Part shown: positions 19,011 through 33,167 of the stretch, piece by piece
Position numbering within the stretch: the first letter of the stretch is position 1
Layout of the letters: each line of letters opens with the position of its first letter
DNA from: an uncultured Planctomycetaceae bacterium
GTDB lineage: Bacteria; Planctomycetota; Planctomycetia; Pirellulales; Lacipirellulaceae
Direction: 5' to 3'
Assembly: GCA_964532675.1 (NCBI GenBank)
Contig: CAZHIV010000227.1
Span: 1 to 35,512 of the forward strand
DNA length: 35,512 nucleotides
Notes under the pieces: generated by a model
Databases searched by the model: none
What the model was told of the DNA's origin: nothing
What the model saw: the letters and a program-made list of their open reading frames with translations, nothing else
Program-made: the position numbers and the translations under genes

Positions 19011-20638
19011 CCCCACAGTCTACCGCGCCCCGTTGCCCCCAGACAGAGACCGAGGATCAAGGGCAGCCCTGCGCCAGGCTCGGGCACGGCGGGGCCGAGA
19101 CCGGCGCCATTGCCGCCCGTCATGCCGAAGTTGTTCACCCAGTCGGTGTAACCTTGTGCCCCGTCGTACGAGTTGGGATCACTGCGCCACAAGGCGTAAT
19201 CGGCCGCGTCCACGGTTCCGTCGCCGTTATGATCGCCCGCAAATGCCGCCACGACTTCAAAGCCAATGGGGAATTGGAACAGCGCGTTCTGCACCGCCTG
19301 GCTCAAACTGCTCACGGTGATGGTCCCGGTCTTTAAGCCGACGGTTGATGTGTTGAGCGGGATATGGTGCGATTCGCCGCCGGCCAAAGCGAGCACCGAG
19401 TCCGAGACCGGAACGAACGCTCCATCGACGACGCTGCCGGAAACGGAAATTGTGTAGTCCAGCTCGTCGGCTCCGATCGCCGCCACGACGTCGGCGATGT
19501 TGCTCACCGTCACGTCGAGATCGAACGATTGCCCGAGGGTGAGCGTCGCGGGAACCGTGCCGGTGAACGCGTTCATGATGGCCGGAAGCTGATAGTCGGC
19601 CACTACAGGCAGGTGGTCGGTGACCGTGGCCAACGCGTTCAGAATCTCGTTCTTCGTGTGCGAGAGGACGCCCGGAAAGAAGATGCTGTTGCCGTCGTTG
19701 ATCGCACCGTTGAACGTCGAGCCGTTGTTGCCGAAAGCGCGGTACGAGCCGCTGATGTAGCTCAACCCCTCGCCGTCCAGGAACTCGCCCGTGACGAGCT
19801 GAAAATCGAAGCGGTCATCCATGCCGCCCCCGGAGCCGCAGCCCGAGACGCAGGGCGACTGGGTGTGGACATCGCGGAAATCGAAGTTGTCGTGCCACGG
19901 TCCCACGCGATTGATGGGATCATGGGCCTGCCCTGGGCCGGCCGCCGTTAAGGTGCCCCACGCCGGTTCATCCGAGTTGGAGTCGTAGAAGTTGTGATCG
20001 CCGGCGTAGATCACGTGCGCTCCTTCGCCGAGCGCATTATCAGAATTGTCGCGGATGGCCGTCGCCTCGACGTTTCGCCGCAAGGCGTTCGTTCCCGGTG
20101 CCGGCTGATCCTGGCTCGCCTTGTAATGGCTATTGTAAACGTAAAAGTCGGCGCTCGCGTCGTAGCCAACGGGCCGCAGTTGAAAGCGCAAAGCCTGACG
20201 TGGTTGACCGGAAACGCTCGTCGTTCCCACCGCCGTGTCGGCGATGAGCTGGACCGTTTCCGTCCGGTACACTAGCGTTTGGGTCCTATCGCCGAATCCG
20301 GTGCGGTCACTCATGTCGTAGTGGGCGCCCTGACCCGCATACATGCTGTTGAGCAACGAAACAAAGGCCTGCGTATTTGGCGAGGGACTGTTCGCCCCCG
20401 CGGAGGGATTGTTTTGTTCCTGCAGCAGGAGGATATCGATGGGCTTGGCAATTCCGTTGACAATGTGCTCGCCGATCGACCGCAGGACGATATCCATGTC
20501 CGTCGCCGGGGCGCCTCTCGTGTTGTAGCTGACGACCCGCAGTTGAGCCTGGGCGGCTTCCACGCACACCAGCAGGCCCAACAGCGGGAGCAGCCCGACC
20601 CGCGTTAGGTTGACCAAAAGGCAAGGCGAGTTCATCAT
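19007..20638 (-). CDS. Secreted endonuclease/exonuclease/phosphatase (EEP) family protein with dockerin-like motif and PEP-CTERM anchor
   Basis: The ATG at 20638 gives the signal peptide MMNSPCLLVNLTRVGLLPLLGLLVCVEAAQA. The EEP N-terminal blocks are LRVVSYNTRG and IDILLLQEQ. The C-terminus is GDHNGDGTVDAADYALWR...VPEPGAGLPLILGLCLGATGRGR. Confidence 0.75.
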   Translation of the reverse strand: MMNSPCLLVNLTRVGLLPLLGLLVCVEAAQAQLRVVSYNTRGAPATDMDIVLRSIGEHIVNGIAKPIDILLLQEQNNPSAGANSPSPNTQAFVSLLNSMYAGQGAHYDMSDRTGFGDRTQTLVYRTETVQLIADTAVGTTSVSGQPRQALRFQLRPVGYDASADFYVYNSHYKASQDQPAPGTNALRRNVEATAIRDNSDNALGEGAHVIYAGDHNFYDSNSDEPAWGTLTAAGPGQAHDPINRVGPWHDNFDFRDVHTQSPCVSGCGSGGGMDDRFDFQLVTGEFLDGEGLSYISGSYRAFGNNGSTFNGAINDGNSIFFPGVLSHTKNEILNALATVTDHLPVVADYQLPAIMNAFTGTVPATLTLGQSFDLDVTVSNIADVVAAIGADELDYTISVSGSVVDGAFVPVSDSVLALAGGESHHIPLNTSTVGLKTGTITVSSLSQAVQNALFQFPIGFEVVAAFAGDHNGDGTVDAADYALWRSDPNSYDGAQGYTDWVNNFGMTGGNGAGLGPAVPEPGAGLPLILGLCLGATGRGRLWG

Positions 20639-20831: not shown

Positions 20832-20908
20832 CAGGATTGGATTAGTGTTGTCGCGATTCTCGAAGATGCAGGCGTCTAGGCATTTTGGCAAGCAGGAAGG
20901 AAGAGCGT

Positions 20909-22828
20909 ATGAGTATTCGCAATTGGTTAACGCAAACAGTCGCAGTTCTATCCGTCGTATCCCTTTATTCTCAGGTCGAGGCTCAAAACGACATTGTCGC
21001 CGAATGGACATTCGAGACGAGCGTTCCCGAGACCGCAGGGCCCCATGCACCCGAAACGGGGTCTGGTTCCGCCATCGGGTTCCATTCCAATGTGGCGGCC
21101 GTCTATAGCAATCCGGTCGGAAATGGAAGCGCGGAGTCGTTCAGCTCCAACAATTGGCTAGTCAACGACTATTATCAATTTCAAACTAGCACCCTCGGCC
21201 TGAGCGACATCGGGCTGATATTTGACCACACCGGCAGCAATACGGGGCCGCGAGACTTTCAATTCCAATACAGCACCAATGGCTCCACCTTTACGGATTT
21301 TGGTTCACCGTACATGCTGACGAACGATGGGTGGTCGTCGGGCGGCGCAACCACGGCAAGTACTCAAGTTTTTGACTTGACATCGATCGCAGCGCTCGAC
21401 AACCAGGCGGACGTTTACTTCCGGCTGCTGAATAACTCGACGACTGCGATTTCCAGTCCGAATCCCGTCGCACCGACCGGCTCGAGCCGAGTCGACAACG
21501 TGACGATCTACAGCGATTTCGTACCGCCCGATGAGCCGCCTCCTCCTCCCGATCCGCGCCTGCCGCAACCTGGTGATGTGGTCTTTGGGCTGAGCGTCGG
21601 CAGCGCGGCGAACACGCTTGAGTTAGTGAGTGGACCGGCTGCGATGGACGGCGGCAGCTTTGCCCCCGGCCCCTGGTCGAGCGACTCGTTTATCCAGTCC
21701 GTCGCGTTCGACAATTACGACGGGCAATCGCACAATGCCCGCGGCAACCTGCTGGGTGTCAATTTTTCCGTGGGCGGCGGCGGCAACAGTGGAGCGATTT
21801 ACAGCTTCGCCACCCAGGGATCGATCCCCGCGCCGGCCGCCCAGTTGATCGGCAATACGGGCGCCACCGACCCCGCCGGGCAGGACGGCAGCCTCACGCA
21901 ATCCGCGCTAGCTGGGCTCTCAGTCAGCCCGGCTAACTCCAAGGTCGCCGTGGTCGGCGTCGATACGGGCAGGGTGATCGTCTACGATTATACGCCCGGC
22001 GACACGATGGGTTCCGGCGCCGCGCTGGCTGACGGCCGAGAGTCGGCGGCGGTCCTCGATACGGGGTCCACGCAGGGAACCGCTTGGCTCGATGACGACA
22101 CCGTCCTGGCCTTTTCGGCCGGCGGAAATCTTTTTGAAGTCGATGCCGACACGATGGCAACTTCCAACGAGGCTACCGTCGAGACCACGATCGTCGGGAT
22201 TGGTACGTTCGCTGGCACACCCTCTGTCGGCAGCGATTTTGCGTCGCTTGCCTACAATCCGGACGTGTCGCAATATCTCTATGCCCTCTACAGCGGTTTT
22301 TCCGGAGAATTAGGGTCGATAACCCATTTGTACGTGTTGGATCCCAGCGATAGTTACAACCAACTGGCCGACATCGAATTGAGCGCGTCCTCGGAGACCG
22401 GCCGGGAAATCGCGCTGGACGCCGACGGCAACCTGTTTATCGGCGGTTTTGGCGGCACCATCGATTTTTTACCCGCCAGCGCGGTTCTGAACCCCGCCTC
22501 GCTGACCAATAACTCGTCGGTGGACTGGTACACGTCGTCGACATTCTCGGTCTTCAACGGCCTTGATATCGGCTTCGGCGAGGCGGGCCTGCCTGGCGAC
22601 CACAACCAGGACGGCACGGTGGATGCCGCCGATTATGCTTTGTGGCGCAGTGATCCAGGTGCGTACGATGGCGCCCAAGGGTACACCGATTGGGTCAACA
22701 ACTTCGGCGCGACGTCCGGTCCCGGAGCTGGAAGCGGCCCCGAGGCGGGCGCAGTGCCGGAGCCAACCAGCCTGGCGATGCTGCTGGTCGGCTTCATCGG
22801 CCTCTGGTCCGCACGCCGACGCGCCTAG
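20909..22828 (+). CDS. Large secreted protein of unknown family with dockerin-like motif and PEP-CTERM anchor
   Basis: The ATG at 20909 (MSIRNWL) is preceded by aggaaggaagag, and a signal peptide ends at VEAQ. The C-terminus is GDHNQDGTVDAADYALWR...VPEPTSLAMLLVGFIGLWSARRRA. A PPDEPPPPPDP linker is present, and the central region looks beta-propeller/repeat-like. Confidence 0.7.
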   Translation: MSIRNWLTQTVAVLSVVSLYSQVEAQNDIVAEWTFETSVPETAGPHAPETGSGSAIGFHSNVAAVYSNPVGNGSAESFSSNNWLVNDYYQFQTSTLGLSDIGLIFDHTGSNTGPRDFQFQYSTNGSTFTDFGSPYMLTNDGWSSGGATTASTQVFDLTSIAALDNQADVYFRLLNNSTTAISSPNPVAPTGSSRVDNVTIYSDFVPPDEPPPPPDPRLPQPGDVVFGLSVGSAANTLELVSGPAAMDGGSFAPGPWSSDSFIQSVAFDNYDGQSHNARGNLLGVNFSVGGGGNSGAIYSFATQGSIPAPAAQLIGNTGATDPAGQDGSLTQSALAGLSVSPANSKVAVVGVDTGRVIVYDYTPGDTMGSGAALADGRESAAVLDTGSTQGTAWLDDDTVLAFSAGGNLFEVDADTMATSNEATVETTIVGIGTFAGTPSVGSDFASLAYNPDVSQYLYALYSGFSGELGSITHLYVLDPSDSYNQLADIELSASSETGREIALDADGNLFIGGFGGTIDFLPASAVLNPASLTNNSSVDWYTSSTFSVFNGLDIGFGEAGLPGDHNQDGTVDAADYALWRSDPGAYDGAQGYTDWVNNFGATSGPGAGSGPEAGAVPEPTSLAMLLVGFIGLWSARRRA

Positions 22829-22863
22829 GATCGCTTCCGTTTGAGTCGCGAAATAAATCGAGA

Positions 22864-22894
22864 CCCATGGCTTCGCCAGAAGCCATGGGCTTTT
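22864..22894 (+). terminator. Rho-independent terminator after the 20909..22828 gene
   Basis: A perfect 11-bp stem (cccatggcttc / gaagccatggg) has a 4-nt loop (gcca) and is followed by cTTTTcgTT. It lies 36 nt after the stop codon. Confidence 0.6.
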
Positions 22895-23032
22895 CGTTCA
22901 CCCGTGTGAAAAATTCCTTGAGAAGGAAATAGACGATAACCGGTCGCCCACGCTATCATACGGGGGAGCCGGTGCCCATGGCCGTTCAGGTTGATCGTCC
23001 GAGGGGGACGGTTTGATGTGAGGACTTCCGGG

Positions 23033-24082
23033 ATGAAATCCAACCATTACCGCGGTTTCACGTTGGTGGAGCTGCTCGTGGTTATCGCGATTATCGGTAT
23101 TTTGGTGGCGCTGTTGCTGCCGGCCATCCAAGCCGCGCGGGAGGCGGCTCGTCGTACCCAGTGTGTCAACAACATCAAGCAGCTCGGCCTGGCGGTTCAC
23201 AACCACCTCACGGCCAAGAAAGACGAGCTCCCGGGCGGCGTCTTTCAGGAAAGTAAGATTCCGGGCGGTTTCCAGGGAGAGTCGTTGTTCGTCTTTCTCT
23301 TGCCGTATATGGAGGAACAGGCGCTGTTCGATAATTGGGATTTCAACTTGCGGGCAAATAACTCGAATACTCCCGACTCACCCGCCGCGGCCATCATCCA
23401 AACGCTGCTGTGCCCGTCGGACAATCCGGCCGATCGAGTATGCTATTTCGATACGAAAGCCGGCAACGCTGGGATGGCGTTTATCGGGTATTACGCGGTC
23501 ACCAGTTACGCCGGCAACCATGGAACGAAGAATTACTATCCGTTCGCGACTTCGGCGGGACCCGCATCAACGGATGATGGTATGTTTTGCGTTTGGGCTC
23601 GGCCCGGTTCGACGGCCGGTGTATGCTACGAGCGGCCGGGAGCGGCCCCTTGCGTGCGACACGATAGCGGCATCAGTTTCAGGTCGGTCACCGACGGCAC
23701 CAGCAAGACAATCTTGTTCGGCGAAAAATATAATGAGGACCCGGTGTTCGACAGTGGGCCATCGCAGGTCAGCGGGTTGGAAATCCACGAGTGGTCGCTG
23801 TGGGGATGGACCGGCGGCTTCAAAGGGACCGGGCACGCGACCCGCAGTGGCTGGCTTGAAATCAACCGGCAGTGCCCATACAGTTGTCAGGGTGCGACGT
23901 CGGGCACCCTTGCCACCCAATGCCAAGACGAGCGACTGACGACTTGGGGCAGCGGTCATCCGGGCGGCGCCAACTTCGTCATGGCCGACGGCTCGTCACG
24001 CTTTATTGCCGACTCCATTGCGATCATTACGCTCCAGGCGATGAGCACCCGCAACAAAGAGGAGGTCACTCCGGAGGAGTGA
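23033..24082 (+). CDS. DUF1559 / H-X9-DG prepilin-like protein (type IV pilin-like N-terminal methylation signal)
   Basis: The ATG at 23033 gives MKSNHYRGFTLVELLVVIAIIGILVALLLPAIQAAREAARR, a prepilin cleavage/methylation motif. The C-terminal block SGHPGGANFVMADGSSRFI is the H-X9-DG motif. This family is massively expanded in Planctomycetota. Confidence 0.85.
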   Translation: MKSNHYRGFTLVELLVVIAIIGILVALLLPAIQAAREAARRTQCVNNIKQLGLAVHNHLTAKKDELPGGVFQESKIPGGFQGESLFVFLLPYMEEQALFDNWDFNLRANNSNTPDSPAAAIIQTLLCPSDNPADRVCYFDTKAGNAGMAFIGYYAVTSYAGNHGTKNYYPFATSAGPASTDDGMFCVWARPGSTAGVCYERPGAAPCVRHDSGISFRSVTDGTSKTILFGEKYNEDPVFDSGPSQVSGLEIHEWSLWGWTGGFKGTGHATRSGWLEINRQCPYSCQGATSGTLATQCQDERLTTWGSGHPGGANFVMADGSSRFIADSIAIITLQAMSTRNKEEVTPEE

Positions 24083-24100
24083 CCTGGCTGTTGATTTCTC

Positions 24101-24541
24101 ATGCCCAAGCAGTTTGCCACCCTTCTTTGTCAGTTCCTTTGCCTGCTGGTTATCTCCGGCTGCCGGGAGGAGCCGGGGCCCGAGATCGCTTCCGTAGAGG
24201 GGGTCGTGCGCCTTAACGGGAAGCCCCAGCGCGGCTTAATGGTTCGTTTCTTGCCCGATCCCGAACAGGGAATTGCCGCGTCGATCGACGCCACAGGTAC
24301 GACCGACGAGCAAGGACAATACGTGTTGGAATACACGTACGAAGGCAACCAGGGTAAAGGAGCGCCGGTCGGATGGCATCGCGTCCTGGTGATCGATACC
24401 ACGCGGGGGCATACTCCGCAGGGGCAACAGCCGCGCCCCTCGTTGATTCCCATGGAATACGCAAGCCCGGCAACAACGCCCATCGCGAAGGAAGTAAAGC
24501 CCGACGGGCCGCAAACGATCGACATTGATATTCGCTTATAG
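24101..24541 (+). CDS. Small lipoprotein with carboxypeptidase-regulatory-like (transthyretin-like) fold, usual partner of DUF1559 genes
   Basis: A lipobox is present (LLVISGC). The beta-rich block VEGVVRLNGKPQRGLMVRFLP is typical of the small lipoproteins that follow DUF1559 genes. It lies 18 nt downstream of the previous gene. Confidence 0.6.
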   Translation: MPKQFATLLCQFLCLLVISGCREEPGPEIASVEGVVRLNGKPQRGLMVRFLPDPEQGIAASIDATGTTDEQGQYVLEYTYEGNQGKGAPVGWHRVLVIDTTRGHTPQGQQPRPSLIPMEYASPATTPIAKEVKPDGPQTIDIDIRL

Positions 24542-24718
24542 GGTCCGCGCTGCGAAGTGGTATGCGGGCCTAAAACCACAGTCGCAGTGATATTGCCCGG
24601 ATAGGGAGCTTTATTGAGGACTGCGCGGCGAATGAACCGATGCGGATCGCGGCTGTCAGCTGAACCAGTTTCAAAACCATCGATGCTTGCGGCACAGCGG
24701 CACAGTGGCAAAGTAGCA

Positions 24719-24803
24719 CAGTGGCACAGGCCGCTGGCCTGTGTCACAGTTTTGCAGTTTTCCGCACCGGCTAGCAGCCGGTGCCACTAATTTTTGAAAC
24801 GGG
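24719..24803. repeat. 85-nt double-hairpin repeat, copy A
   Basis: It is about 92% identical to 27674..27757 in direct orientation. Hairpin 1 is gtggCACAGGCCgctGGCCTGTGtcac followed by agTTTTg. Hairpin 2 is GCACCGGCTagcAGCCGGTGC followed by cactaaTTTTTg. It is preceded by degenerate GCACAG(C/T)GG mini-repeats at 24688..24730. Confidence 0.85.
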
Positions 24804-24863
24804 TCCCTATCAGCCGTCAGCTTTCAGCCAGAAAAGGTTCATTCACTGCGCAGGGTCAATAGG

Positions 24864-25685
24864 TTACTCAGCCGCGACGGCCACCAGTTCCTCGCTCACT
24901 GCTTCGATCTGCTGGGCGGTGAGCCGAGGCAGCTTGTCGGCGAATCCGACCAGTAGCGCGAGATCGCCCAGGCGATTGATTTGCCGCGGCGTGCCGTGGC
25001 CGAGGTAGTGCAGCGCTTCGACGGCGTCGGGCGTGAAGATTTCGCGTGCCGCCCCGGCCGCCTGCAAGCGGTGACGGACGTAGCCGGCGGTTTCTTGGGC
25101 GGTGAACGAGCGAACGAGGGCTTTCACCGCGGCCCTCTCCTCCAGGCTCGTCAGGCGGCCGACCGCCGAAACCAGGCCCATTTGTCCCACCAGGAGCAGC
25201 GTGAGCGTCGGTTGGCCGGCCACCTCGAAATTGAGCAATAGACGCAGCGTTTCCAGCGCGCCGCAGTCTTCGAGCAGGTGGGCCTCATCGATCGCCACCA
25301 CCGCGTGCCGGCCCCGTTGGGCGTTCTGCTGCAACAGGAACTCGAGCCGGCGGACGCTTTCCTCGATCGTGTGCCGGGGCGGGTCGGCCGGCGGCGCCCC
25401 AAGCTGCTCCGCCAGGTAAACCAGCAGGTCGCGGCTCGACATCTGGGGAAATACGAGGTGGACCTGGGGCCGAAACGTTTCGCCCAGCTCGCCGCGAAAG
25501 AGCTGCACGAGCATCGTCTTGCCGACGCCCGCCGGGCCCGCCAGCAGCGCCGCCGCACGGCGATTCTCCACCGCGTAGCGAAGCTTCAGCAGCGCCGCCT
25601 CGTGGGATTCGCAGGAGTAGAACGTCGCCCGATCCGTGCCGGGTTCGAACGGCTTATTCGCCAGTTGCCAATAGTCGAGATACAT
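24864..25685 (-). CDS. ExeA/GspA/MshM-like AAA ATPase (PEP-CTERM-locus type putative secretion ATPase-like)
   Basis: The N-terminus is YLDYWQLANKPFEPGTDRATFYSCESHEAALLKLRYAV, the family-typical y..fFgL...PF start. Walker A is GPAGVGKT and Walker B is the DEAH-like VAIDEAHLL. It has 273 aa, with no TM or peptidoglycan-binding domain. Confidence 0.7.
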   Translation of the reverse strand: MYLDYWQLANKPFEPGTDRATFYSCESHEAALLKLRYAVENRRAAALLAGPAGVGKTMLVQLFRGELGETFRPQVHLVFPQMSSRDLLVYLAEQLGAPPADPPRHTIEESVRRLEFLLQQNAQRGRHAVVAIDEAHLLEDCGALETLRLLLNFEVAGQPTLTLLLVGQMGLVSAVGRLTSLEERAAVKALVRSFTAQETAGYVRHRLQAAGAAREIFTPDAVEALHYLGHGTPRQINRLGDLALLVGFADKLPRLTAQQIEAVSEELVAVAAE

Positions 25686-25708
25686 GGGAAGAGGTCAGGG
25701 GTCGGAGG

Positions 25709-26707
25709 TCAGGCTTGTGAGGTCGCCCTTGGCGTAGCAACGCGGTTCTCAATCGTGCCCAACAGCTCGCAGCCACTGCGGCCGAGGTGCGCCGCCAAGG
25801 TTGCCAGTTCGCTGGTCGCGGCCGGCTTCGGACCGGTGACGGCGAGTATCGCGTCGAGCCCCATGTTGCGCGTGAGCTCGAGCACGATCGGCTGCGACGT
25901 GGCATCGAAAAAAGCGCCCGTATCGATCAACACCAGGTCGTAGGCATGCCGCAGCACGCCGGCCGTAACCACGGCCTGCAAACCGCCGACGAGGCGCAGG
26001 ACATTGTTCGGCTTCCGGTCACCGAGCGCCAACAGATCGAAACGGTTGTCCTTGGCGCGGACGACCGCATCGGCCAGCGGCCCGCCGTGCTGGAGCACTT
26101 CCTGCCAGCCGATCGTCGGGACCGCTTCGAGCCACGAAGCCAGCCGCGGACGGCAAAAATTGCCCTCCACCAGGATCACGCGGCGATCGCGGCACGCCAG
26201 TCGCGCCGCCAGGCACAAGGCGGTCGTCGTCGCTCCCAGGCCGGATTTCAGACCCATCACGCCGATCAGCGACCGGCCTCCTCCCGCTTCCGTCACGAGC
26301 CGGTCGGCGACGCCGTCGAGCTGTGTGCCGCACCGCTCGGCGAGCGCCCGGCAGATAGGGGGCCATTGAAACGCGGCGATCGTCGTTCCCGGCCGAAGGA
26401 ACTCGCCTTCTGCCAGCTGCGCGCCGGGCGCCGCGTGGAGCGGCCGGGCAATAAACGCCGAGAGCGGTTGCTTCTCGGCCCCGCCGCGGGCTGCATGGCT
26501 TTGGGTTTTCGCGCCGAGGGCGGCACCCTCTGGCAGTGGACCGTATAGGGCCGACCGCTCGCCCGTCGCGGAGGCGACGGAATTCATCGCCACGCCTGCG
26601 CCGGTCGGTGCCGGCCGGACGGAGCCGGTGATCGCCGGGGTCGCCGGCGCGGCCTGAGGGTCGTCGTGACGGTATGCCTTAATGAAGGCTTGGTCGGTTG
26701 TCGTCAT
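25709..26707 (-). CDS. ParA/MinD/BY-kinase-like P-loop protein with degenerate Walker A, plus a ~140-aa low-complexity N-terminal region
   Basis: The C-terminal half aligns by eye to the BY-kinase/ParA fold. It shows VMGLKSGLGATTT (Walker A position), VILVEGNFCRPRL (Walker A' position), YDLVLIDTG (Walker B) and LLGTIENRV. The P-loop Lys is replaced by Ala. ATG start at 26707. Confidence 0.6.
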   Translation of the reverse strand: MTTTDQAFIKAYRHDDPQAAPATPAITGSVRPAPTGAGVAMNSVASATGERSALYGPLPEGAALGAKTQSHAARGGAEKQPLSAFIARPLHAAPGAQLAEGEFLRPGTTIAAFQWPPICRALAERCGTQLDGVADRLVTEAGGGRSLIGVMGLKSGLGATTTALCLAARLACRDRRVILVEGNFCRPRLASWLEAVPTIGWQEVLQHGGPLADAVVRAKDNRFDLLALGDRKPNNVLRLVGGLQAVVTAGVLRHAYDLVLIDTGAFFDATSQPIVLELTRNMGLDAILAVTGPKPAATSELATLAAHLGRSGCELLGTIENRVATPRATSQA

Positions 26708-27656
26708 GTTGGACCTGTGGGGTAGGAGCCGCGATGGAACCGGTCAAGCGGGCCACGGCCGACGACGAGGGCGAGGTTGGCCTCGCGCCCGGCTGCCGCG
26801 CGGCGTTCGGTTGCGCCGAATCGCTTTGCGGTTCTGGCCGGCTTGCGAAGCGCGAGCCTTCGACGACTGTTGTTCCAGGCTTGCCGATTTGCGAAAGTTC
26901 TTCGCTCGCAGCTTCTTCCTGGTCAGATAAAACGCGTTCCTCGGAGTCGTCGGACGTCTGCACCTGCGGCACGAGTCGCCAATTCGATACGGCAGCTCGC
27001 GGCGCGGCCGGTACTACCGATGATTGCGGGTTGTCAATTGCCGAGCGGCGACGCTCCTTCGGCCGCAACCCGGTTCTGGGCGTCTTCGAGCCCAACGGTC
27101 CTGCCGCGGTTGGTGGCGAGTCTGGCGACTCAAAGGTATGAGTGGCCGCAGGAACGGCTTCCGGTTTCAGCGACTGTTGGGCGGTCGTAGTGACCGGTTC
27201 CAGGCCGTCGTCGGCCCGCTCAGATTGGCGTCGGATCGTCAGGATCGACGTCCCGATGGCCGTGAACAGCGCGAACAAGAACAGGAAACGGGCGACCGGC
27301 GCGAGCGTGTCGGCCAGGCTTGTGCGTGGGATTTCAAACGGGTTCGAGCGGGGCAGTATGGGCGAATCGCCGCGGAACTTGTGCCCAGCCTTGCCCGGCA
27401 GTATATGCGGCTGCCCCGGCTGAGACGCGGTCGACGCGCCCCCGCTCGCAGTTGCACGATCCAATTTGCGTCTGCTCCGCTCCGCACTTTCCGGCGGGTC
27501 GAACCGATAACTGACGAAGCCCGCTGCCGCCGCTCGGTTCGGCCGCGGAGTCGCGTGCGATACTTCACCGGTCAAGTCGGGCAGCCGCGCCAGGACGGGC
27601 CACTCGGAGCCGTCGACGCGCGAAGCCGAATCGGATGTCGTGGAAGTTGTTTTCAA
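26679..27656 (-). CDS. Hypothetical single-pass membrane protein, Pro/Ser/Ala-rich
   Basis: The ORF has high third-position GC. One TM helix is present (about aa 119..141, LAPVARFLFLFALFTAIGTSILTI). There is no internal Met, so the start must be non-ATG (TTG at 27656 in the ORF track). It overlaps the next gene by 29 nt. I recognise no family. Confidence 0.45.
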   Translation of the reverse strand: MKTTSTTSDSASRVDGSEWPVLARLPDLTGEVSHATPRPNRAAAAGFVSYRFDPPESAERSRRKLDRATASGGASTASQPGQPHILPGKAGHKFRGDSPILPRSNPFEIPRTSLADTLAPVARFLFLFALFTAIGTSILTIRRQSERADDGLEPVTTTAQQSLKPEAVPAATHTFESPDSPPTAAGPLGSKTPRTGLRPKERRRSAIDNPQSSVVPAAPRAAVSNWRLVPQVQTSDDSEERVLSDQEEAASEELSQIGKPGTTVVEGSRFASRPEPQSDSAQPNAARQPGARPTSPSSSAVARLTGSIAAPTPQVQHDDNRPSLH

Positions 27657-27673
27657 CGTGTTACCCGACGGCT

Positions 27674-27757
27674 CAGTGGCACAGGCCGCTGGCCTGTGTC
27701 ACAGTTTTGCAGTTGCCCGCACCGGCTGGCAGCCGGTGCCACTTGTTTTGAAACCGG
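27674..27757. repeat. 85-nt double-hairpin repeat, copy B
   Basis: A direct copy of 24719..24803. The first 41 nt are identical. It lies 18 nt upstream (in gene sense) of the 27656 start, inside the 340-nt spacer after the kinase gene. Confidence 0.85.
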
Positions 27758-27996
27758 TTCTCGTGCGAAAGTGAATACGCGCGCAGCATCAAACCTTTGG
27801 AGACGCTGCCAGCCCCAGTGAGTCTATCGGGTAGCGGTTGCGGGGCCCTTGAGGATTGGCGCAATCGCGGACGAGAACGTCCGCTAGCGCTAGCAATGCT
27901 GCTGCTCGAGCGACTCGCGCTCACCTGTGGCGGCCAAATCCACCGTTTTCGCGATCAAGCGGGCGAATTAACGGCTGCGGATTCTGCAGATTAGCT

Positions 27997-30900
27997 TTAA
28001 GGCGCCCGGCGGGCGGTGAGCGCGTCGCCGTTGCGCCAATCGTCCGCCAGCCAGATAATTGCCGTGCCGTCGCGGCTGGAGGTGAGCACGTTGCGGCCCC
28101 GCGGCGAGAAACTTACCGACGTGACTTCCTGCGTATGCCCAGGTAGCGAAAGGACTTCTTTGCCGGTCCGGGCGTCCCACAACTTGGCGGTGTAATCCTG
28201 GCTGCCGGTGAGGGCCCGCCTTCCGTCGGGCGAGATGGTGACGGAAGTGATCGCCGCCGTGTGGCCAGCCAGCGTGTGCAGCACTTCTCCGGATTCGCAG
28301 TTCCAAATTTTGGCCGTCTTGTCCTGGCTGCCTGTGATGACCTGCGTTCCGTCGGGCGAGAACCGGCCCGAAAGGACAGCCCACTGATGCCCCTCGAGCG
28401 GCTTCAGCGTTTCGCCACTGTCGCGGTCCCAGATGCGAGCCGTTTTGTCGCCGCTGACCGTGAGGATCCGCTTGCCGTCGGGCGAAAATGTGGCCGCCAA
28501 TATGCGGGCCGTGTGTCCGCGCAACACGGCGCCGCTCGGCCGGCCCGTTTCCACGTCCCATAGCCGGGCCGTTCCGTCATCGCTCGCTGTCAGCAGGTAT
28601 CGTCCATCGGGCGAGAATTCCACCGAGTTGATGTAGCCCGCGTGGCCGCTGTCCAGCTTGCGGATCGCCCGGCCTGTCGCCGCATCCCAAATCTTGGCGG
28701 AATGGTCCCAGCTTCCGGTTGCTACGAGCTTTCCGTCGGGCGAGATGGCGGCCGAGGCCACCGCGCCGTGCGGGCTGTACCGCACGGCAGAGCGGCGCGA
28801 TTCGGGTTTCTGCAATTTCACCGCTTCGACGTTCCACAACTGGGCATCGTTGCCGCCGATCGTCAGCAGGTGCCGGCCGCCGGGCGCAAATGTCGCCGCC
28901 CAAACTTCGCCGCCCAGCGCATTGAAATCCAGAATCGGCTCGGCGAGCCGCCCGGGTGCCTGGTTGGCGGAGCCGCGGGCCGCCGAAAGGTCCCACAGCC
29001 GCACGAGCTTGTCCGCCGACGAGGCCAGCACCGCCGTGCTGCCGTCCGGCGAAAAGCCCGATGAGTTGAACGGCGCTCCCGGCGACTGCACGGAAGCGAG
29101 CTGCGTGGCGTCGGCCAGTCGCCACAGCCGCGCCATGCCGTCGTCGCACGTCGTCAGCGCCATGGTGCCGTCGGCAGACATGTCGAGCGAGCTGACCCAA
29201 TCCGGGTGTGTCAGCACGAGCTGCCGCAATTCTTCGCCGCTGGCCACATCCCACTGGCCGCAGGTGCGATCGCCGCTGGCGGTGATCAGCCTTCGGCTGT
29301 CGAGCGTGAAACGCAGGGCCGTGATCGTGCCGTTGTGACCGGTCACCTCGCGCACAAAGTCCCATCGGGGCTCCGAATTCTGATTCGTCCGCCGCCAAAG
29401 TCGCACGCGGCCTCCCTCGCCGCCGCTGGCCAGCCACTCGCCCGATGGCGAGAACGCCAGCGCCGAGACCTCCCGGATATGTCCGCTCAGCGTGGCAGCC
29501 AGCTTGCCAGTTCGAGCGTTCCAAATTTGGATGTCGGTGCCGACGCTGCCCGTAGCGATCCACTTGCTGTCGGGCGAAACGGCCAGCGTGCCGATCCGGC
29601 CGGTGGGGGTGAGGACCGTCTCTTCGGTGCCGGCGGCCAGCTTCCAGATCCGCACCGAGTTATCGCCTGCGCCGGTAGCAAGGTGCTGGCCGTCGGGAAA
29701 GAAAACGGCGCCGGACACCAGGAATTCATGTCCCTCTTCAAAGCGTCGCAGCGGCTTGCCGTTGGCCGCGTCCCACAGGCTGGCCGTGCGATCGCGGCTG
29801 GCCGTCACGATCTGGCGGCCGTCGGGTGAAAACCGCGCCGAGAGGACCGCGTCCTCGTGGCCGGAGAAGGCGGTCGCATGCAGTACGCGCACTTCCTGAT
29901 AGCCTTGCACGTTCCAAACCCGCGCTTGCTGGTCGTCGCCACCGGAGAGGACCCATTGGCCGTCGGGCGCGAACGCGCAGGCCCGCACGGGACTGCCGTG
30001 CCCGCGCAGCGCCTTCACTCCCTCGCCGGTTGCCACGTCCCAGACGCGGATCGTATTGTCTTCGCTGCCGCTGATCACCAACTGGCCGTTGGGCGAGAAC
30101 GCGACCGCCCGCACCGGGCCGTCATGGCCGCTGAGAATCATATGGTCGGCCCGCGGATCGGCGGCGCCTTCCAGCCGACGGCCGATATCGACCGGCTGAA
30201 CTTCGTCCGGATTCCAAATCATCACGCGGTTGTCGTAGCCGCCCGTGCACACGAGTGTGCCGTCCGGCGAGAACCTGGCCGAATACACCGCGCCGCCGTG
30301 GCCGTTGAACTCGGTGAGTCGGGCGTAGTGGGGCTGGGGGCTGGGGGCTGGGGGCTGGGGGCTGGCAGAGGGCTGTTCAGTGACTTCTTGCTTCTGCCAT
30401 ACGACCGCGCGTCCGTCCTGGCCGGCGGTGACAATTCGCTTTGCGTCGGGCGAGAACTCGGCCGCCCAGACCCACCAATTGTGTCCTTTGAACTCCTGCA
30501 GCATGCGCCGGGTGGCCAGGTCCCAGAGTCGGGCCGTGTTGTCGTACGAACCGCTCAGAAGCTGCCGGCCGTCGGGCGAGAAACACACCGAAAGTACACC
30601 GTCTCTGTGGCCGGGCAGCGTCGCCAGCACTTTGCCGTCGGCCGCGCTGTGGATTTTGATCGTTTTGTTGCTGCTGCCGCTGGCAATGTACCGGCCGTCC
30701 GGCGAATACGCCACCGAGTGGACGTACTGGCCGTGCTGCACCGGCGGGAAACGCAGCGTGCCTGTTTGGGCATCGCGCACGGTGATCTTGCCGCCGAAGT
30801 CGCCCGTGACGAACGAGCGGCCGTCCGGCGAGTAGGCCACGGCGTCGATCGGGCCTTCGGCCGCGTAGGCCGCGGTGCCGAGCTGTGTCAGATGAACCAG

Positions 30901-33120
30901 CCGCCCCCACTCCCAATTGCGCAGCTCCGGATTGCTTTCCTGGAGCAGCTCGTAGGCATAATCGAACGCGTTGTCGTTGATCTTGGCGGCCGCCAGGCCG
31001 ATCTGCGCGACGTACGCTTCGTATTCCTCGCGCTCCTTGGCGAGCTCGGCCGCTTCGCGCTGCTTTTCTTCCTCTTGGCGGGCCAGTGCTTCATTCGCTC
31101 GGGCTTTCTCGGCATCGCGACGCCGCTGATCGGCCAGCTCGCGGGCCTTCTCCTCTTCCAGTTTGGCCAGCGTGGCGGCGTCGCGGTCTTTCTCGGCCTG
31201 CTGTCGGGCGGTCGCTTCGCCCTCCTGCGCGGCCACGGCCAGGTCTTTTTGATTGACCGCTTCGTCGCGCGCCCGGCTCACTTGGAAATAGGCCACCGTG
31301 ACCGTGACCACCACCACCGCCGCCAACCCGGCCACGGCCCGCTTGGCCAGGCGCAGCCGGCGCTGGCGGGCATCGCGTTCGGCGCGGGCCGCGTCGATTT
31401 GCTTCGTCAGCGCCTGGTGCTCGGCCTGGCTGCCGTCCAACAGCGACGCCGCCAGATCGAAGTCGCCCTTGTTGAGCGCGCACGTGGCATAGTCGCGCTG
31501 CGTCTCGGTCAAGAGGAGCCGCGCCCGCTGATTGCCGTTCCACAGCGTTAGCGATTCCTGGAAGCCGTACAGCGCGCGGGCGTACGGCTGGTAGTCGTTC
31601 GTCTCCCGTGCCTTTTGCAGATTCTGGTTTGCGTGCGCCGACAGGACCAGGCTTTCGGAGTGCGACTGATAGACCCGGATCGCTTCTTGAAACTCTTTGA
31701 CGGTCTGGTAGCGATCCTCCTGCCGCGTGGCCATGGCCTTGAGCGCCAAGGCCTTCAATTCGCCATCGTAGCGGATCGGGTCAATGCGGTTCTGCGACGC
31801 CGCCATCAGGCACTGCATCACGTCGCGGCCGGAGTGCGGCGGCTGGCCGCCGATAATCTCGTAGAGGATTGCCCCGAGGAGGTAGACGTCGCTAGTCTTA
31901 TTGATGTTCTCGACCGGGCCGCGGGCCATTTCCGGCGCCATGTAGGCCGGCGTGCCGCCCAGGCTGTCGGCCTGGTACACCGTATCCACGTGGGCGAACT
32001 CGGGCGTGATGCGCGCGAGCCCCCAGTCCATCACCAGCACTTCGCCGAAATCGCCCAGCATCACGTTTTCGGGCTTCAAGTCGCGGTGAATCACGCCGCC
32101 CGCGTGGGCAAACGCCACCGCGTCTGCCACGCGCAACAGGATGCTGAGGTTCTCGTCGAGCTGTTTCTGGTGGATGACCTTGTCCCACGGCGTGCCGCGA
32201 ACCCGCTTCATCGAGTAGAACAACGCTCCCTCGTCGTTCGCGCCCAGGTCGTAAATCGGCACGATGTTCGGATGATCCAGCTCGCCGGTGACGACCGCTT
32301 CGGAGATGAACTTGTCGCGTTGGTCCTCGCGCACTTTGGCAGAGGGCTTGAGCATTTTCACGGCGACGGTCCGCGCGATGGACGACTGGTGGGCCGCGTA
32401 CACCACCCCCATGCCGCCTTCGCCGATGATGTCCAGCAGCTCGTAATCGGGCACTTCCGCCAGGTTCATCGGCGGCGCGCCGCCGTTCGTGCGCTTTTCG
32501 CGAATGTAGCGCGACTTCACCGGCAGCGACGAGCGAAAGCCCGATACCGTCTCCCGCTGCCGGATGGTCTGCCCCTGCCGGGCGTCGCGGTCGAACGTGC
32601 CGCGCCACTGCGAGTCGAGCCGCCGCGCGTCGGCCGACGAGGCGTCCAGGTCGATCGTCCGGTCGCTTTCGTACGTGTGAGTCGAGCGGCGCGTTGCCTT
32701 CTTGCTCGGATCCTCGGCGGTCGGGCCTACCGGGGCATCGAACATGATCGTCATGTCCGACTGGTCGGGTACCGTGGGCGCCTTGCGCTCGGGGCCGCTG
32801 GCCTTCTCCGGCGAGGCGGCCGCATCCTTCTCACGATCCGCCTCCGATGTGTCCGCCTGGCTCGCTTGGATCGTCGCGCCGCCTTGGCCCGTGTCGGTCA
32901 GTTCGAAGTCCAGCGATTCGTCCGACGCGGCGGTATCCGAAACGACATGCTCCTGGGTAGCGCCCGATGGTGGGTTGCCGCCGTCTGGATCGCGCAACAA
33001 TCGCTTGTCCTCAATTGTGCGCTGGGCCAGCTTCCGCAGCACGGCACCGCAATGAGGGCATTTGCCGGACGACACGGCCGCCTGATCTAGTTCGCCTTGG
33101 CAAGCATGACACGTTCGCAT
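27997..33120 (-). CDS. Membrane-spanning Ser/Thr protein kinase with N-terminal zinc ribbon, coiled coil and about 22 WD40 repeats
   Basis: The ATG at 33120 gives MRTCHACQ...CPHCG. Hanks kinase motifs are GEGGMGVVY, VAVKML, HRDLKPEN, DWG and GTPAYMAPE (about nt 31670..32445). The TM helix is AVAGLAAVVVVTVTVAYF (about 31282..31344), preceded by RQRRLRLAKR. An E/K/R/A-rich coiled coil follows, then WD40 blades (GH...FSPDG...WD) from about 30870 to the stop codon. Confidence 0.88.
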   Translation of the reverse strand: MRTCHACQGELDQAAVSSGKCPHCGAVLRKLAQRTIEDKRLLRDPDGGNPPSGATQEHVVSDTAASDESLDFELTDTGQGGATIQASQADTSEADREKDAAASPEKASGPERKAPTVPDQSDMTIMFDAPVGPTAEDPSKKATRRSTHTYESDRTIDLDASSADARRLDSQWRGTFDRDARQGQTIRQRETVSGFRSSLPVKSRYIREKRTNGGAPPMNLAEVPDYELLDIIGEGGMGVVYAAHQSSIARTVAVKMLKPSAKVREDQRDKFISEAVVTGELDHPNIVPIYDLGANDEGALFYSMKRVRGTPWDKVIHQKQLDENLSILLRVADAVAFAHAGGVIHRDLKPENVMLGDFGEVLVMDWGLARITPEFAHVDTVYQADSLGGTPAYMAPEMARGPVENINKTSDVYLLGAILYEIIGGQPPHSGRDVMQCLMAASQNRIDPIRYDGELKALALKAMATRQEDRYQTVKEFQEAIRVYQSHSESLVLSAHANQNLQKARETNDYQPYARALYGFQESLTLWNGNQRARLLLTETQRDYATCALNKGDFDLAASLLDGSQAEHQALTKQIDAARAERDARQRRLRLAKRAVAGLAAVVVVTVTVAYFQVSRARDEAVNQKDLAVAAQEGEATARQQAEKDRDAATLAKLEEEKARELADQRRRDAEKARANEALARQEEEKQREAAELAKEREEYEAYVAQIGLAAAKINDNAFDYAYELLQESNPELRNWEWGRLVHLTQLGTAAYAAEGPIDAVAYSPDGRSFVTGDFGGKITVRDAQTGTLRFPPVQHGQYVHSVAYSPDGRYIASGSSNKTIKIHSAADGKVLATLPGHRDGVLSVCFSPDGRQLLSGSYDNTARLWDLATRRMLQEFKGHNWWVWAAEFSPDAKRIVTAGQDGRAVVWQKQEVTEQPSASPQPPAPSPQPHYARLTEFNGHGGAVYSARFSPDGTLVCTGGYDNRVMIWNPDEVQPVDIGRRLEGAADPRADHMILSGHDGPVRAVAFSPNGQLVISGSEDNTIRVWDVATGEGVKALRGHGSPVRACAFAPDGQWVLSGGDDQQARVWNVQGYQEVRVLHATAFSGHEDAVLSARFSPDGRQIVTASRDRTASLWDAANGKPLRRFEEGHEFLVSGAVFFPDGQHLATGAGDNSVRIWKLAAGTEETVLTPTGRIGTLAVSPDSKWIATGSVGTDIQIWNARTGKLAATLSGHIREVSALAFSPSGEWLASGGEGGRVRLWRRTNQNSEPRWDFVREVTGHNGTITALRFTLDSRRLITASGDRTCGQWDVASGEELRQLVLTHPDWVSSLDMSADGTMALTTCDDGMARLWRLADATQLASVQSPGAPFNSSGFSPDGSTAVLASSADKLVRLWDLSAARGSANQAPGRLAEPILDFNALGGEVWAATFAPGGRHLLTIGGNDAQLWNVEAVKLQKPESRRSAVRYSPHGAVASAAISPDGKLVATGSWDHSAKIWDAATGRAIRKLDSGHAGYINSVEFSPDGRYLLTASDDGTARLWDVETGRPSGAVLRGHTARILAATFSPDGKRILTVSGDKTARIWDRDSGETLKPLEGHQWAVLSGRFSPDGTQVITGSQDKTAKIWNCESGEVLHTLAGHTAAITSVTISPDGRRALTGSQDYTAKLWDARTGKEVLSLPGHTQEVTSVSFSPRGRNVLTSSRDGTAIIWLADDWRNGDALTARRAP
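30330..30363. repeat. (GGGGGCT)n heptanucleotide tract (about 5 units) inside the kinase-WD40 CDS
   Basis: A ggggct unit is followed by four perfect gggggct units. The tract is translated (minus strand) as SPQPPAPSPQP between two WD40 blades. Confidence 0.9.
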
Positions 33121-33167
33121 AGTTAATCTCGGCTTTCGCTCAGAGCCGCCGACAGACCCCACAGGTC

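Follow-up and report, generated by a model that had tools for sequence, protein, structure and literature searches.

EcpK, from the exopolysaccharide (EPS) system of Myxococcus xanthus, and HfsB, from the Caulobacter holdfast system, are pseudokinases with the fold of bacterial tyrosine kinases (BY-kinases), for which a role as scaffolds for co-polymerases without phosphorylation has been proposed (PMC12004946). In Sphingomonas LM7, EPS production depends, in a way not yet understood, on the AAA+ ATPase PrmE, whose gene lies beside those of a Wzz protein and of a CapB-type kinase (PMC11340318). Here we describe a locus related to both, carried by a 35,512-nucleotide stretch of DNA from an uncultured Planctomycetaceae bacterium (contig CAZHIV010000227.1 of assembly GCA_964532675.1, hereafter the window). 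It consists of three tightly packed minus-strand open reading frames (ORFs) coding for a single-pass membrane protein, a predicted BY pseudokinase and an ExeA/GspA-type ATPase. An earlier note on this DNA had seen in them a diverged or repurposed version of the module known from EPS and PEP-CTERM loci, a view that is supported by the reference loci, by the BY-kinase fold of the middle protein and by the family-wide loss of its catalytic residues. We give about an even chance to the following reading: the trio is a membrane-tethered complex that works without tyrosine phosphorylation, with the pseudokinase as adaptor, and that has its ancestry in an EPS unit made up of a co-polymerase, a BY-kinase and an ATPase. 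The three genes are:

26679–27656, minus strand: single-pass membrane protein (325 aa, TTG start), disordered on both sides of its helix (AlphaFold, hydropathy, 34 homologues).
25709–26707, minus strand: BY pseudokinase (332 aa, ATG start), with a disordered N-terminal stretch of 100 aa that carries short conserved motifs and a BY-kinase-fold core at aa ~105–325 (AlphaFold, Foldseek, profiles).
24864–25685, minus strand: soluble ExeA/GspA-type AAA+ ATPase (273 aa, ATG start) with intact catalytic motifs (AAA_22, TIGR03015, family hidden Markov model).

The membrane-protein and pseudokinase genes overlap by 29 nt (26679–26707), and a gap of 23 nt (25686–25708) separates the pseudokinase gene from that of the ATPase, just as the earlier note had it.

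The middle protein is predicted to adopt a BY-kinase fold and not a generic ParA fold. Its AlphaFold model has a predicted local distance difference test score (pLDDT) of 82.8 overall and above 90 for residues 105–325, and each of its top 50 Foldseek matches in the PDB (50/50) is a BY-kinase (Wzc, VpsO, CapAB/CapB, BceF or Etk), the TM-score reaching 0.80–0.84 for VpsO. When compared with the PDB, the family profile ranks VpsO (3.5e-11), CapB (7e-10) and Wzc (3e-7) ahead of MinD (4e-6). Pfam gives weak matches to the ParA superfamily only; in NCBIfam, the scores for TIGR03018 (33.7 bits, cutoff 230.65) and TIGR01007 (27.7 bits, cutoff 108.05) fall far below the cutoffs. Two sets of relatives were used to follow the catalytic residues, one of 109 close relatives and one of 80 diverse relatives (cluster representatives at ≤50% identity); within the latter, TIGR03018 is matched by 75 and TIGR01007 by 72 proteins, never near the cutoff. 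Two elements of the active site are degenerate in the window:

26225–26254, minus strand: degenerate P-loop GLKSGLGATT, with Ala at the position of the catalytic Lys (sequence; alignment of relatives).
26147–26179, minus strand: degenerate Walker A' VILVEGNFCRP, in which DxD has become ExN (sequence; alignment of relatives).

The P-loop aligns with the GKST of a CapB-type kinase (hhalign), and the position of its catalytic Lys is never occupied by Lys, being A in 81, T in 20, C in 4 and S in 4 of the close relatives (Lys 0/109) and C in 33, A in 21, R in 17, V in 6, S in 2 and T in 1 of the diverse ones (Lys 0/80). The second Asp of Walker A' is replaced by N in 102/109 close relatives; in the diverse set, D is found in 41/80 and N in 29/80. 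Walker B retains D262 (109/109 close and 79/80 diverse relatives), the PP that follows being changed to G[AP]. Finally, the C-terminal Tyr cluster is absent: the last 25 residues contain no Tyr in 71/80 diverse relatives and a single one in the other 9, whereas active kinases linked to ATPases of this type end in YDYY, YGYYG or YYGKYG. Since the P-loop Lys and the Tyr cluster are lost throughout the family, and the second Walker A' Asp is lost in the clade of the window, the protein is not expected to act as an autokinase, and the earlier description of it as catalytically dead holds for its relatives as well. With the fold kept and both catalytic residues and Tyr tail lost, it is to be classed as a BY pseudokinase in the sense in which EcpK and HfsB are.

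The resemblance to EcpK and HfsB is close: these are stand-alone cytoplasmic proteins of BY-kinase fold, matched by Foldseek to Wzc, Etk, VpsO and CapAB, with an unstructured N-terminus and without catalytic Walker residues or a Tyr-rich tail (PMC12004946). There are, however, several differences. EcpK and HfsB have as partner a co-polymerase of the PCP-2 type, with two transmembrane (TM) helices and a large helical periplasmic domain, encoded in Wzx/Wzy clusters; the partner in the trio is a disordered one-helix protein that has no similarity to Wzz, and no Wzx, Wzy or Wza is encoded in the window. The trio pseudokinase keeps Walker B, the P-loop glycines and the Thr-Thr pair, and has a long linker and a near-invariant N-terminal motif. 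It is always followed by an ExeA-type ATPase, and no such ATPase is reported for EcpK and HfsB in PMC12004946.

In the source annotations, the proteins appear as hypothetical, as "Mrp family chromosome partitioning ATPase" or as "BcsQ". One alternative is a system for positioning or cell division of the ParA/MinD type in budding planctomycetes devoid of FtsZ, with the middle protein as a ParA-like spatial regulator and the other two proteins as its partners. It could draw on the weak matches of the middle protein to MinD, Ssd/CpaE, BcsQ and ParA models, on the conservation of the trio across the order in a housekeeping neighborhood and on the very strong conservation of its ATPase. Yet BY-kinases outrank MinD in both the profile and the fold comparisons, and neither the signature Lys nor the catalytic Lys of the deviant Walker A of ParA and MinD (KGGxxGK[ST]) is conserved, the signature position, 154, being F in 71, H in 10 and K in 7 of the 109 close relatives. 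Because the lysines of the deviant Walker A are not conserved, the ATP-dependent dimerization that underlies ParA and MinD function is not expected, and we consider such a role improbable.

The membrane protein, encoded upstream of the pseudokinase, has a single hydrophobic segment (aa 121–141, Kyte–Doolittle 1.99). In the AlphaFold model, built from an alignment of 25 sequences, one helix spans residues 114–150 with pLDDT values up to 97 and the remainder of the chain is disordered. The composition is biased (A 12.6, S 12.3 and P 11.4%), in line with the low-complexity single-pass protein announced by the earlier note. Its best-placed elements are as follows:

27573–27599, minus strand: motif PVLARLPDL (family VLA[RQ]LP, aa 21–26) in the presumed cytoplasmic N-terminal segment; L22, A23 and L25 are invariant and P26 nearly so.
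27489–27509, minus strand: motif YRFDPPE (family [YF]x[FV]D[PS], aa 50–54), with variants FYVDPQH, HFVDPGH and YFVDRRH.
27234–27296, minus strand: transmembrane helix (hydropathy 1.99; AlphaFold helix with pLDDT 81–97).

Further motifs are, in order, SPILPRSNPF, LAP at the start of the helix and, beyond the helix, PTAAGPL, LPQVQT[ST][DE] (LPQVQTSD in the window) and ARLPG. The first three motifs (VLA[RQ]LP, [YF]x[FV]D[PS] and SPILPRSNPF) persist in distant lineages, where VLA[RQ]LP takes the forms IVLARIPHVG, VVLARVPHLD and AVLARLPDLD. Database searches retrieved 34 homologues (E from 3e-71 to 4e-11). The conservation of the motifs, of the TM helix and of the homologues at the protein level across loci argues that this first ORF is a real gene; as the copy of the window is not itself among the database matches, the gene may be uncalled in the source annotation. 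No Pfam or NCBIfam family is matched, the T2SSB domain (PF16537 in Pfam, which Aeromonas ExeB matches at 3e-21) is absent, and a BLASTP comparison with Escherichia coli GspB is not significant. The N-terminal part is 100–160 aa long and basic, the C-terminal part is acidic, and no signal peptide was found, which makes N-in, C-out the more likely orientation.

The third protein has two intact Walker motifs, of which the earlier note had called the first intact and the second DEAH-like:

25515–25538, minus strand: Walker A GPAGVGKT; G50, G53, G55 and K56 are invariant in 19 diverse orthologues.
25278–25298, minus strand: Walker B VAIDEAH; E134 is invariant and position 133 is D or E in the same orthologues.

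N152 and several Arg are also invariant in these orthologues, and the ATPase is the only trio protein with intact motifs for nucleotide hydrolysis. Its Pfam matches are all of AAA type (AAA_22, E = 4.5e-17). Its length is that of the ATPase domain alone, and it has no match to PG_binding_1; the TM, C39-like and peptidoglycan-binding parts of ExeA are missing, as the earlier note had recognized for the first and the last of them (compare PF21327 and PF01471 in Aeromonas ExeA). Over all related loci, the ATPase is 42–89% identical and mostly 272–274 aa long, the exceptions being 291 aa in L032 and 290 aa, as read, in L005. The best NCBIfam match is TIGR03015, the XrtA/PEP-CTERM-associated ATPase, with 134.5 bits over the full length, which does not reach the cutoff of 324.5. 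An HMM built from the ATPases of the Pirellulales aligns from end to end (positions 1–257 to 1–267) with eight references at 135–175 bits, including an N-terminal MYxxxFxLxxxPF segment (MYxxY[WF]xLxxxPF in the comparison with ExeA and GspA). The scores are 173–175 bits for GspA/ExeA, 137–156 for EPS-cluster ATPases, 149 for the XrtA-locus ATPase and 135 for an MshM-like one. Of the earlier proposal that the ATPase resembles the soluble MshM/PEP-CTERM subtype, the soluble architecture is retained, but the protein is no closer to that subtype (135–156 bits) than to ExeA/GspA. Pairwise comparisons agree: hhalign gives a probability of 99.9% with the Palleronia EPS-cluster ATPase, tblastn gives 33% identity with Aeromonas ExeA (E = 2e-22), and annotated relatives on plasmid records are ~30–33% identical (tblastn). 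E. coli K-12 GspA, by contrast with the eight other references, is not matched by the family HMM or significantly by BLASTP; K-12 GspA was judged a poor reference, and Aeromonas ExeA/ExeB and Ideonella GspA/GspB were used instead of K-12 GspA/GspB. In the PDB, a search with the single sequence found nothing and a profile search found only weak AAA+ matches (the P-loops of Cdc6, ORC, TnsC and midasin) and no structure of an ExeA-type ATPase domain. Altogether, these comparisons place the protein in the ExeA/GspA/MshM/XrtA-ATPase superfamily (AAA_22, COG3267-type), in what appears to be a subfamily of its own outside all named ones.

One branch of this superfamily is transposon-associated: relatives at ~30% identity lie beside or overlap annotated IS481-family transposases on Geobacillus plasmids. 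Others of similar identity are found on plasmids of Streptomyces, Rhodococcus and Pseudonocardia (all these being hits H10, H14 and H16–H20).

The described EPS/PEP-CTERM module to which the earlier note referred is real, since relatives of the ATPase lie in such loci in Palleronia, Rhodobacter, Loktanella, Sphingomonas (XrtA) and Rhizobium. On plasmids of the Roseobacter group (Palleronia, Rhodobacter and Loktanella), the order is ATPase, Wzz and CpsD/CapB kinase, and the unit adjoins sugar transferases, a tetratricopeptide-repeat protein, a polysaccharide exporter and VPLPA-CTERM proteins. The pRPC locus of Rhizobium has the order of the trio (Wzz-like protein, BY-kinase, ATPase), and the Sphingomonas relative sits in a full XrtA locus. 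Other relatives are found in the Aeromonas ExeA–ExeB and Ideonella GspA–GspB pairs and, as a soluble ATPase, beside MshL in Legionella. The EPS-cluster units (PrmE/F/G, Roseobacter group, Rhizobium) thus share with the trio a full-length ATPase homologue and a kinase protein of the same layout, opened by the motif Mxx[IL]xxA[LI]x[KR]A. They differ in that their kinases keep GK[ST], DxD and a YxY tail, in that the membrane partner is a true Wzz, and in their location among sugar transferases, Wza-type exporters and CTERM-sorting proteins. As to the XrtA/PEP-CTERM systems, TIGR03015 and TIGR03018 are the best NCBIfam matches of the two cytoplasmic trio proteins and the ATPase is soluble in both cases; nevertheless, the trio scores lie far below the cutoffs, the window contains no exosortase or XrtA-system gene, and the only PEP-CTERM protein nearby (20885–22828) falls in a variable insert. 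The earlier placing of the trio at the equivalent positions of the EPS module stands insofar as the membrane protein occupies the Wzz position; this protein shows no detectable Wzz homology, and the trio does not lie in an EPS or exosortase locus.

These data also bear on whether the trio could be a canonical, active Wzz/Wzc/EpsA system of co-polymerase and kinase, too diverged for HMMs. The identity of the two best NCBIfam matches and the Rhizobium-like gene order are compatible with it. Nonetheless, the catalytic Lys is missing in every relative examined, no Tyr cluster is present, all scores are far under the curated cutoffs, and the membrane protein, with its one TM helix, lacks both a folded periplasmic domain and similarity to Wzz. 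Strong HMM matches to such a system, with catalytic orthologues, were what the earlier note had set against its own view; none was found, and the orthologues lack catalytic residues as well. This explanation is largely refuted already, and the probability that we leave to it is minute.

Outside its core, the pseudokinase is best conserved at its extreme N-terminus:

26669–26707, minus strand: N-terminal motif MTTTDQAFIKAYR (family pattern Mxx[ILT]xxA[LIF]x[KR]A), conserved in 80 diverse relatives.

More specifically, F8 is found in 80/80, A7 in 78/80, A11 in 77/80, I9 in 74/80 and K or R at position 10 in 72/80 of these proteins. Pfam searches with the N-terminal 133 aa and with a doubled motif peptide gave nothing meaningful. 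The pattern, in the form Mxx[ILT]xxA[LIF]x[KRQ]A, also opens several proteins encoded beside ExeA-type ATPases:

Aeromonas ExeB: MSTLLKALRRAD.
Ideonella GspB: MSYILDALRRAD.
Rhodobacter active BY-kinase: MERIQSAIAKAR.
Loktanella active BY-kinase: MDKIRAAISKAR.
Rhizobium active BY-kinase: MEIIARALQRAR.

In the Palleronia BY-kinase the motif is offset by two residues, and in the kinase of the Sphingomonas XrtA locus SLLERAANVY comes just after the annotated start. The active ATPase-linked BY-kinases have the same layout as the pseudokinase, namely N-terminal motif, disordered linker and kinase core. A regular expression for the motif, applied to the 1615 mechanical ORFs (≥100 aa) of the window and of all loci, matched 28 of them: 22 pseudokinase orthologues, two ExeB/GspB proteins, three ATPase-linked kinases and one unrelated antisense ORF. 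From this co-occurrence with ExeA-type ATPases we infer that the motif may be a handle by which these ATPases bind their partners. Nowhere in the literature searched is this motif described as tying the assembly factors of type II secretion to EPS kinases. Reference loci in which the motif can be seen in ATPase-linked BY-kinases, ExeB and GspB are L055 (3998–6327), L056 (6983–10318) and L061 (3614–6864).

The motif and the ATPase scores together feed the main rival explanation, in which the trio would be an ExeAB/GspAB-like assembly factor. ExeA and ExeB insert the secretin ExeD, and the trio would similarly help to place or anchor, across the cell wall, an outer-membrane channel of the secretin type, which could belong to a type II secretion system, to a pilus (type IV or MSHA-like) or to planctomycete fimbriae. 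The functions of ExeB would then be split, the ATPase-binding helix residing on the pseudokinase, and the TM helix and Pro-rich periplasmic tail on the membrane protein. In favor of this idea, the ATPase domain is homologous to those of ExeA and GspA from end to end and gives with them its highest HMM scores (173–175 bits), ExeB and GspB start with the motif that opens the pseudokinase, a related soluble ATPase lies beside MshL in Legionella, and a DUF1559 prepilin-like gene lies 0.8 kb away (22991–24082). ExeB is, like the trio membrane protein, a single-pass protein with a Pro-rich periplasmic region (PMC4098917). On the other hand, ExeA has its own TM helix and C39-like and peptidoglycan-binding domains and ExeB has T2SSB, none of which is found in the trio; ExeAB includes no kinase-fold component, and so far only polysaccharide systems are known to have partners with a BY-kinase fold. 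In the neighborhoods whose genes were listed, none codes for a secretin, a GspE-type protein or a pilus component, and the trio has no adjacent secretin gene. The GspB/ExeB-type segment sits on the pseudokinase and not on the membrane protein, its 11 residues being too few to tell homology from convergence. As for the DUF1559 gene, it falls in a variable insert between conserved blocks, and DUF1559 genes are very numerous in planctomycetes. On balance, we hold the ExeAB-like explanation to be unlikely, albeit well ahead of a positioning role.

The variable insert in question (20885–24541, plus strand) lies between the trio and a conserved block of AIRC, NAD(P)HX-dehydratase and FAD-synthetase genes. 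It codes for a 647-aa PEP-CTERM protein (20885–22828), the DUF1559 prepilin-like protein (22991–24082), which has an N-terminal methylation motif, and a 146-aa protein whose hydrophobic N-terminus makes it a possible lipoprotein. Similar but different cargo is found at this spot elsewhere: a PEP-CTERM protein in L002, and LTD, DUF1559 and 157-aa proteins in a JGI contig.

The trio is found in the same order in ~50 loci from three deep lineages of the Pirellulales (Lacipirellulaceae-like, Thermoguttaceae-like and marine/sediment). The related loci examined were L001–L028, L030–L032 and L033–L053, gene order being judged where the flanking DNA sufficed. In all three lineages, the ATPase gene lies directly downstream of the pseudokinase gene in every locus that reaches far enough, and a single-pass protein is encoded directly upstream in every examined locus with upstream DNA, even though the pseudokinase has diverged to 28–37% identity. 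A database search with the pseudokinase retrieved 165 relatives from Pirellulales, Lacipirellulaceae and "Planctomycetota" metagenome bins, and a profile search of 1.84 billion cluster representatives retrieved 444 at E ≤ 1e-30 (family representatives, clustering at 50% identity). The Lacipirellulaceae-like lineage comprises 25 loci, all in metagenome-assembled genomes (scan of one genome per species), whose identity to the window is 72–89% for the ATPase, 40–66% for the pseudokinase and 28–43% for the membrane protein; where tblastn missed the latter, the upstream ORF codes for a single-pass protein with the same motifs. Thermoguttaceae-like loci have the order small single-pass protein, pseudokinase, ATPase, with ThiC upstream, and an ATPase of 273 aa in two of the three loci and 291 aa in the third. 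In the marine/sediment lineage, found by scanning metagenomes with an alignment of a 12-member pseudokinase subgroup, the ATPase follows the pseudokinase in 22/22 loci that are long enough and a single-pass protein precedes it, with identities of 42–74% (ATPase) and 28–38% (pseudokinase). Since the flanking genes vary among lineages, the trio is a conserved unit. Its surroundings in the window are of the housekeeping kind: RecG, menaquinone genes, UbiA/UbiX, an aminoacyl-tRNA synthetase, cytochrome b/c, FAD synthetase and NAD(P)HX dehydratase. A promoter scan of 24400–28200 found no sigma-70-like site, and terminator-like sites at chance level, such a scan being uninformative for planctomycetes; Rfam had no match in the whole window. 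Literature searches (TIGR03015; Planctomycetes with ExeA or GspA; HfsB with Planctomycetes) yielded no account of the trio.

This distribution is hard to reconcile with an anti-phage defense system or mobile cassette, an idea raised by the frequency of AAA_22/STAND-like ATPases in defense islands. Weak nSTAND6 and TniB matches of the ATPase, the proximity of some of its plasmid relatives to IS481 transposases and a 90-nt direct repeat that flanks the trio almost exactly are in its favor. But PADLOC returned noise only (E = 0.002–0.006), many species have the trio at one and the same syntenic place, none of the orthologous loci contains the repeat, and the GC content is like that of the surroundings. 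We deem this explanation next to excluded. The repeat itself (24716–24805 and 27671–27760; 89% identical, with a 70-nt core at 96%) lies 59 nt past the ATPase stop codon on one side and 15 nt before the membrane-protein start on the other. Each copy contains two GC-rich hairpins, the second followed by a T-run on the plus strand, with fold z-scores of -2 to -4. It has no Rfam match and is probably a genome-specific element of the repetitive extragenic palindromic or miniature inverted-repeat transposable type, or a terminator.

Besides the N-terminal motif, a second feature goes beyond the earlier note, namely a conserved neighbor upstream of the trio:

27997–33162, minus strand: bitopic Ser/Thr kinase of 1721 aa (Pfam, hydropathy, orthologues).

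This protein consists of an N-terminal Cys4 segment, a kinase domain, a TM helix at aa ~608–630 (following RRLRLAKR), a charged coiled coil and ~960 aa of WD40 repeats; Pfam recognizes 17 WD40 stretches in it and Pkinase in its orthologues. Because the WD40 repeats follow the TM helix, the propellers are presumed to be periplasmic, which would make the protein a receptor kinase. An orthologue, 55–78% identical over the last 450 aa, lies immediately upstream of the trio in 33 loci of two lineages (Lacipirellulaceae-like and marine). In L001–L003, genomes whose pseudokinase is only 46–53% identical, the kinase domain is 92–94% identical, an unusually strong conservation. WD40 propellers commonly bind short linear motifs, and motifs of this kind occur in the tail of the membrane protein, which suggests a functional link between the two proteins. 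A bolder version of our reading is that the trio and this kinase form an unrecognized, Pirellulales-specific membrane-spanning machine, in which the GspB-like helix would load the AAA+ motor, the WD40 domain would read PTAAGPL, LPQVQTSD and ARLPG, and Ser/Thr phosphorylation would replace the Tyr cycle; we regard it as speculative and rather unlikely.

In the complex to which we give an even chance, the pseudokinase would act as an adaptor, by analogy with EcpK and HfsB. Its N-terminal helix would recruit the ATPase, and its kinase-like core would bind the VLARLP and YRFDPP motifs in the N-terminal part of the membrane protein, much as CapB, Wzc and HfsB hold their co-polymerase by its juxtamembrane peptide, while the tail of the membrane protein would extend into the periplasm. 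ATP turnover by the AAA+ subunit, taking the place of a tyrosine phosphorylation cycle, might then drive the assembly and disassembly of an envelope-spanning export or assembly structure; candidate cargoes are a surface polysaccharide or holdfast, PEP-CTERM protein sorting, and a secretin or pilus. In two of the three lineages, the receptor Ser/Thr kinase may supply the regulatory input that replaces tyrosine autophosphorylation, and its WD40 domain may read the tail motifs. As to its origin, the trio would descend from the co-polymerase, BY-kinase and ExeA-like ATPase unit of Wzx/Wzy-type EPS loci, including XrtA/PEP-CTERM loci, and would have become separated from the sugar-synthesis genes in the Pirellulales.

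Several observations weigh against this picture. The 35.5-kb window contains no Wza, Wzx, Wzy, glycosyltransferase, sugar-synthesis, exosortase or secretin gene, so that the link to polysaccharide export is one of ancestry, not of context. The membrane protein has no detectable homology to Wzz or polysaccharide co-polymerases (no Pfam or NCBIfam match; hhalign probability of 0.2% against Wzz), it has one TM helix where a co-polymerase has two, and AlphaFold gives it no folded periplasmic domain. The charges flanking its helix are balanced, so the positive-inside rule gives no orientation. The N-terminal motif is only ~11 residues long and its docking role is deduced from co-occurrence. Arg occupies the P-loop Lys position in 17/80 diverse relatives of the pseudokinase, which may leave some residual nucleotide binding. 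The WD40 Ser/Thr kinase is not adjacent to the trio in the Thermoguttaceae-like loci, one of which has another Ser/Thr kinase just downstream, and such kinases are numerous in planctomycetes. Finally, every relative comes from metagenomes, that is, from uncultured organisms.

Two further features of the window deserve mention. Upstream of the Ser/Thr kinase, a 764-aa ORF (33168–35462, minus strand) without Pfam match contains internal DNA repeats spaced by 354 and 1074 nt; it extends to within 50 nt of the window edge, so that its start may lie elsewhere. In L001–L003 (1–1319), the neighbor at this position is a PKD/Big-domain protein of 1788–3665 aa, and the conserved block may extend to a giant surface protein. 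Away from the trio, a 36-nt palindromic element (TCCCCTCCCT..AGGGAGGGG..) is present in two copies that are 92% identical, at 18663–18698 and 18970–19005, inside the N-terminal part of ORF 18246–19016. As the AIRC domain of this ORF begins only at aa 123, its annotated start may be too far upstream and the palindromes are perhaps intergenic.

BY pseudokinases and EPS-linked ExeA-like ATPases were already known separately; what is new is their obligate pairing with a disordered single-pass partner, their separation from sugar genes, the connection to a WD40 receptor kinase and the motif tie to ExeB and GspB. BY pseudokinases have been recognized only recently, with EcpK and HfsB, and the role of ExeA-like ATPases in EPS, XrtA and MSHA loci is unknown beyond ExeA. 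Here, an entire order has kept a trio in which the kinase is dead without exception, a disordered single-pass protein stands in for the co-polymerase, and no component is better conserved than the ATPase; the trio therefore isolates the kinase-fold and ATPase core from the sugar machinery. The shared N-terminal motif provides a testable hypothesis for the recruitment of ExeA-type ATPases in type II secretion, in EPS export and in the trio, settings that tend to be considered apart from one another. If the four-gene version that includes the receptor kinase were true, its role would be to govern an envelope process particular to the lineage, for instance the export of a holdfast or of fimbriae, or polar budding. 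The trio marks a conserved block of three to four genes of unknown function in planctomycetes, whose envelope and division machinery is poorly understood, and, with 444 family representatives at E ≤ 1e-30, this block is a good candidate for knock-out.

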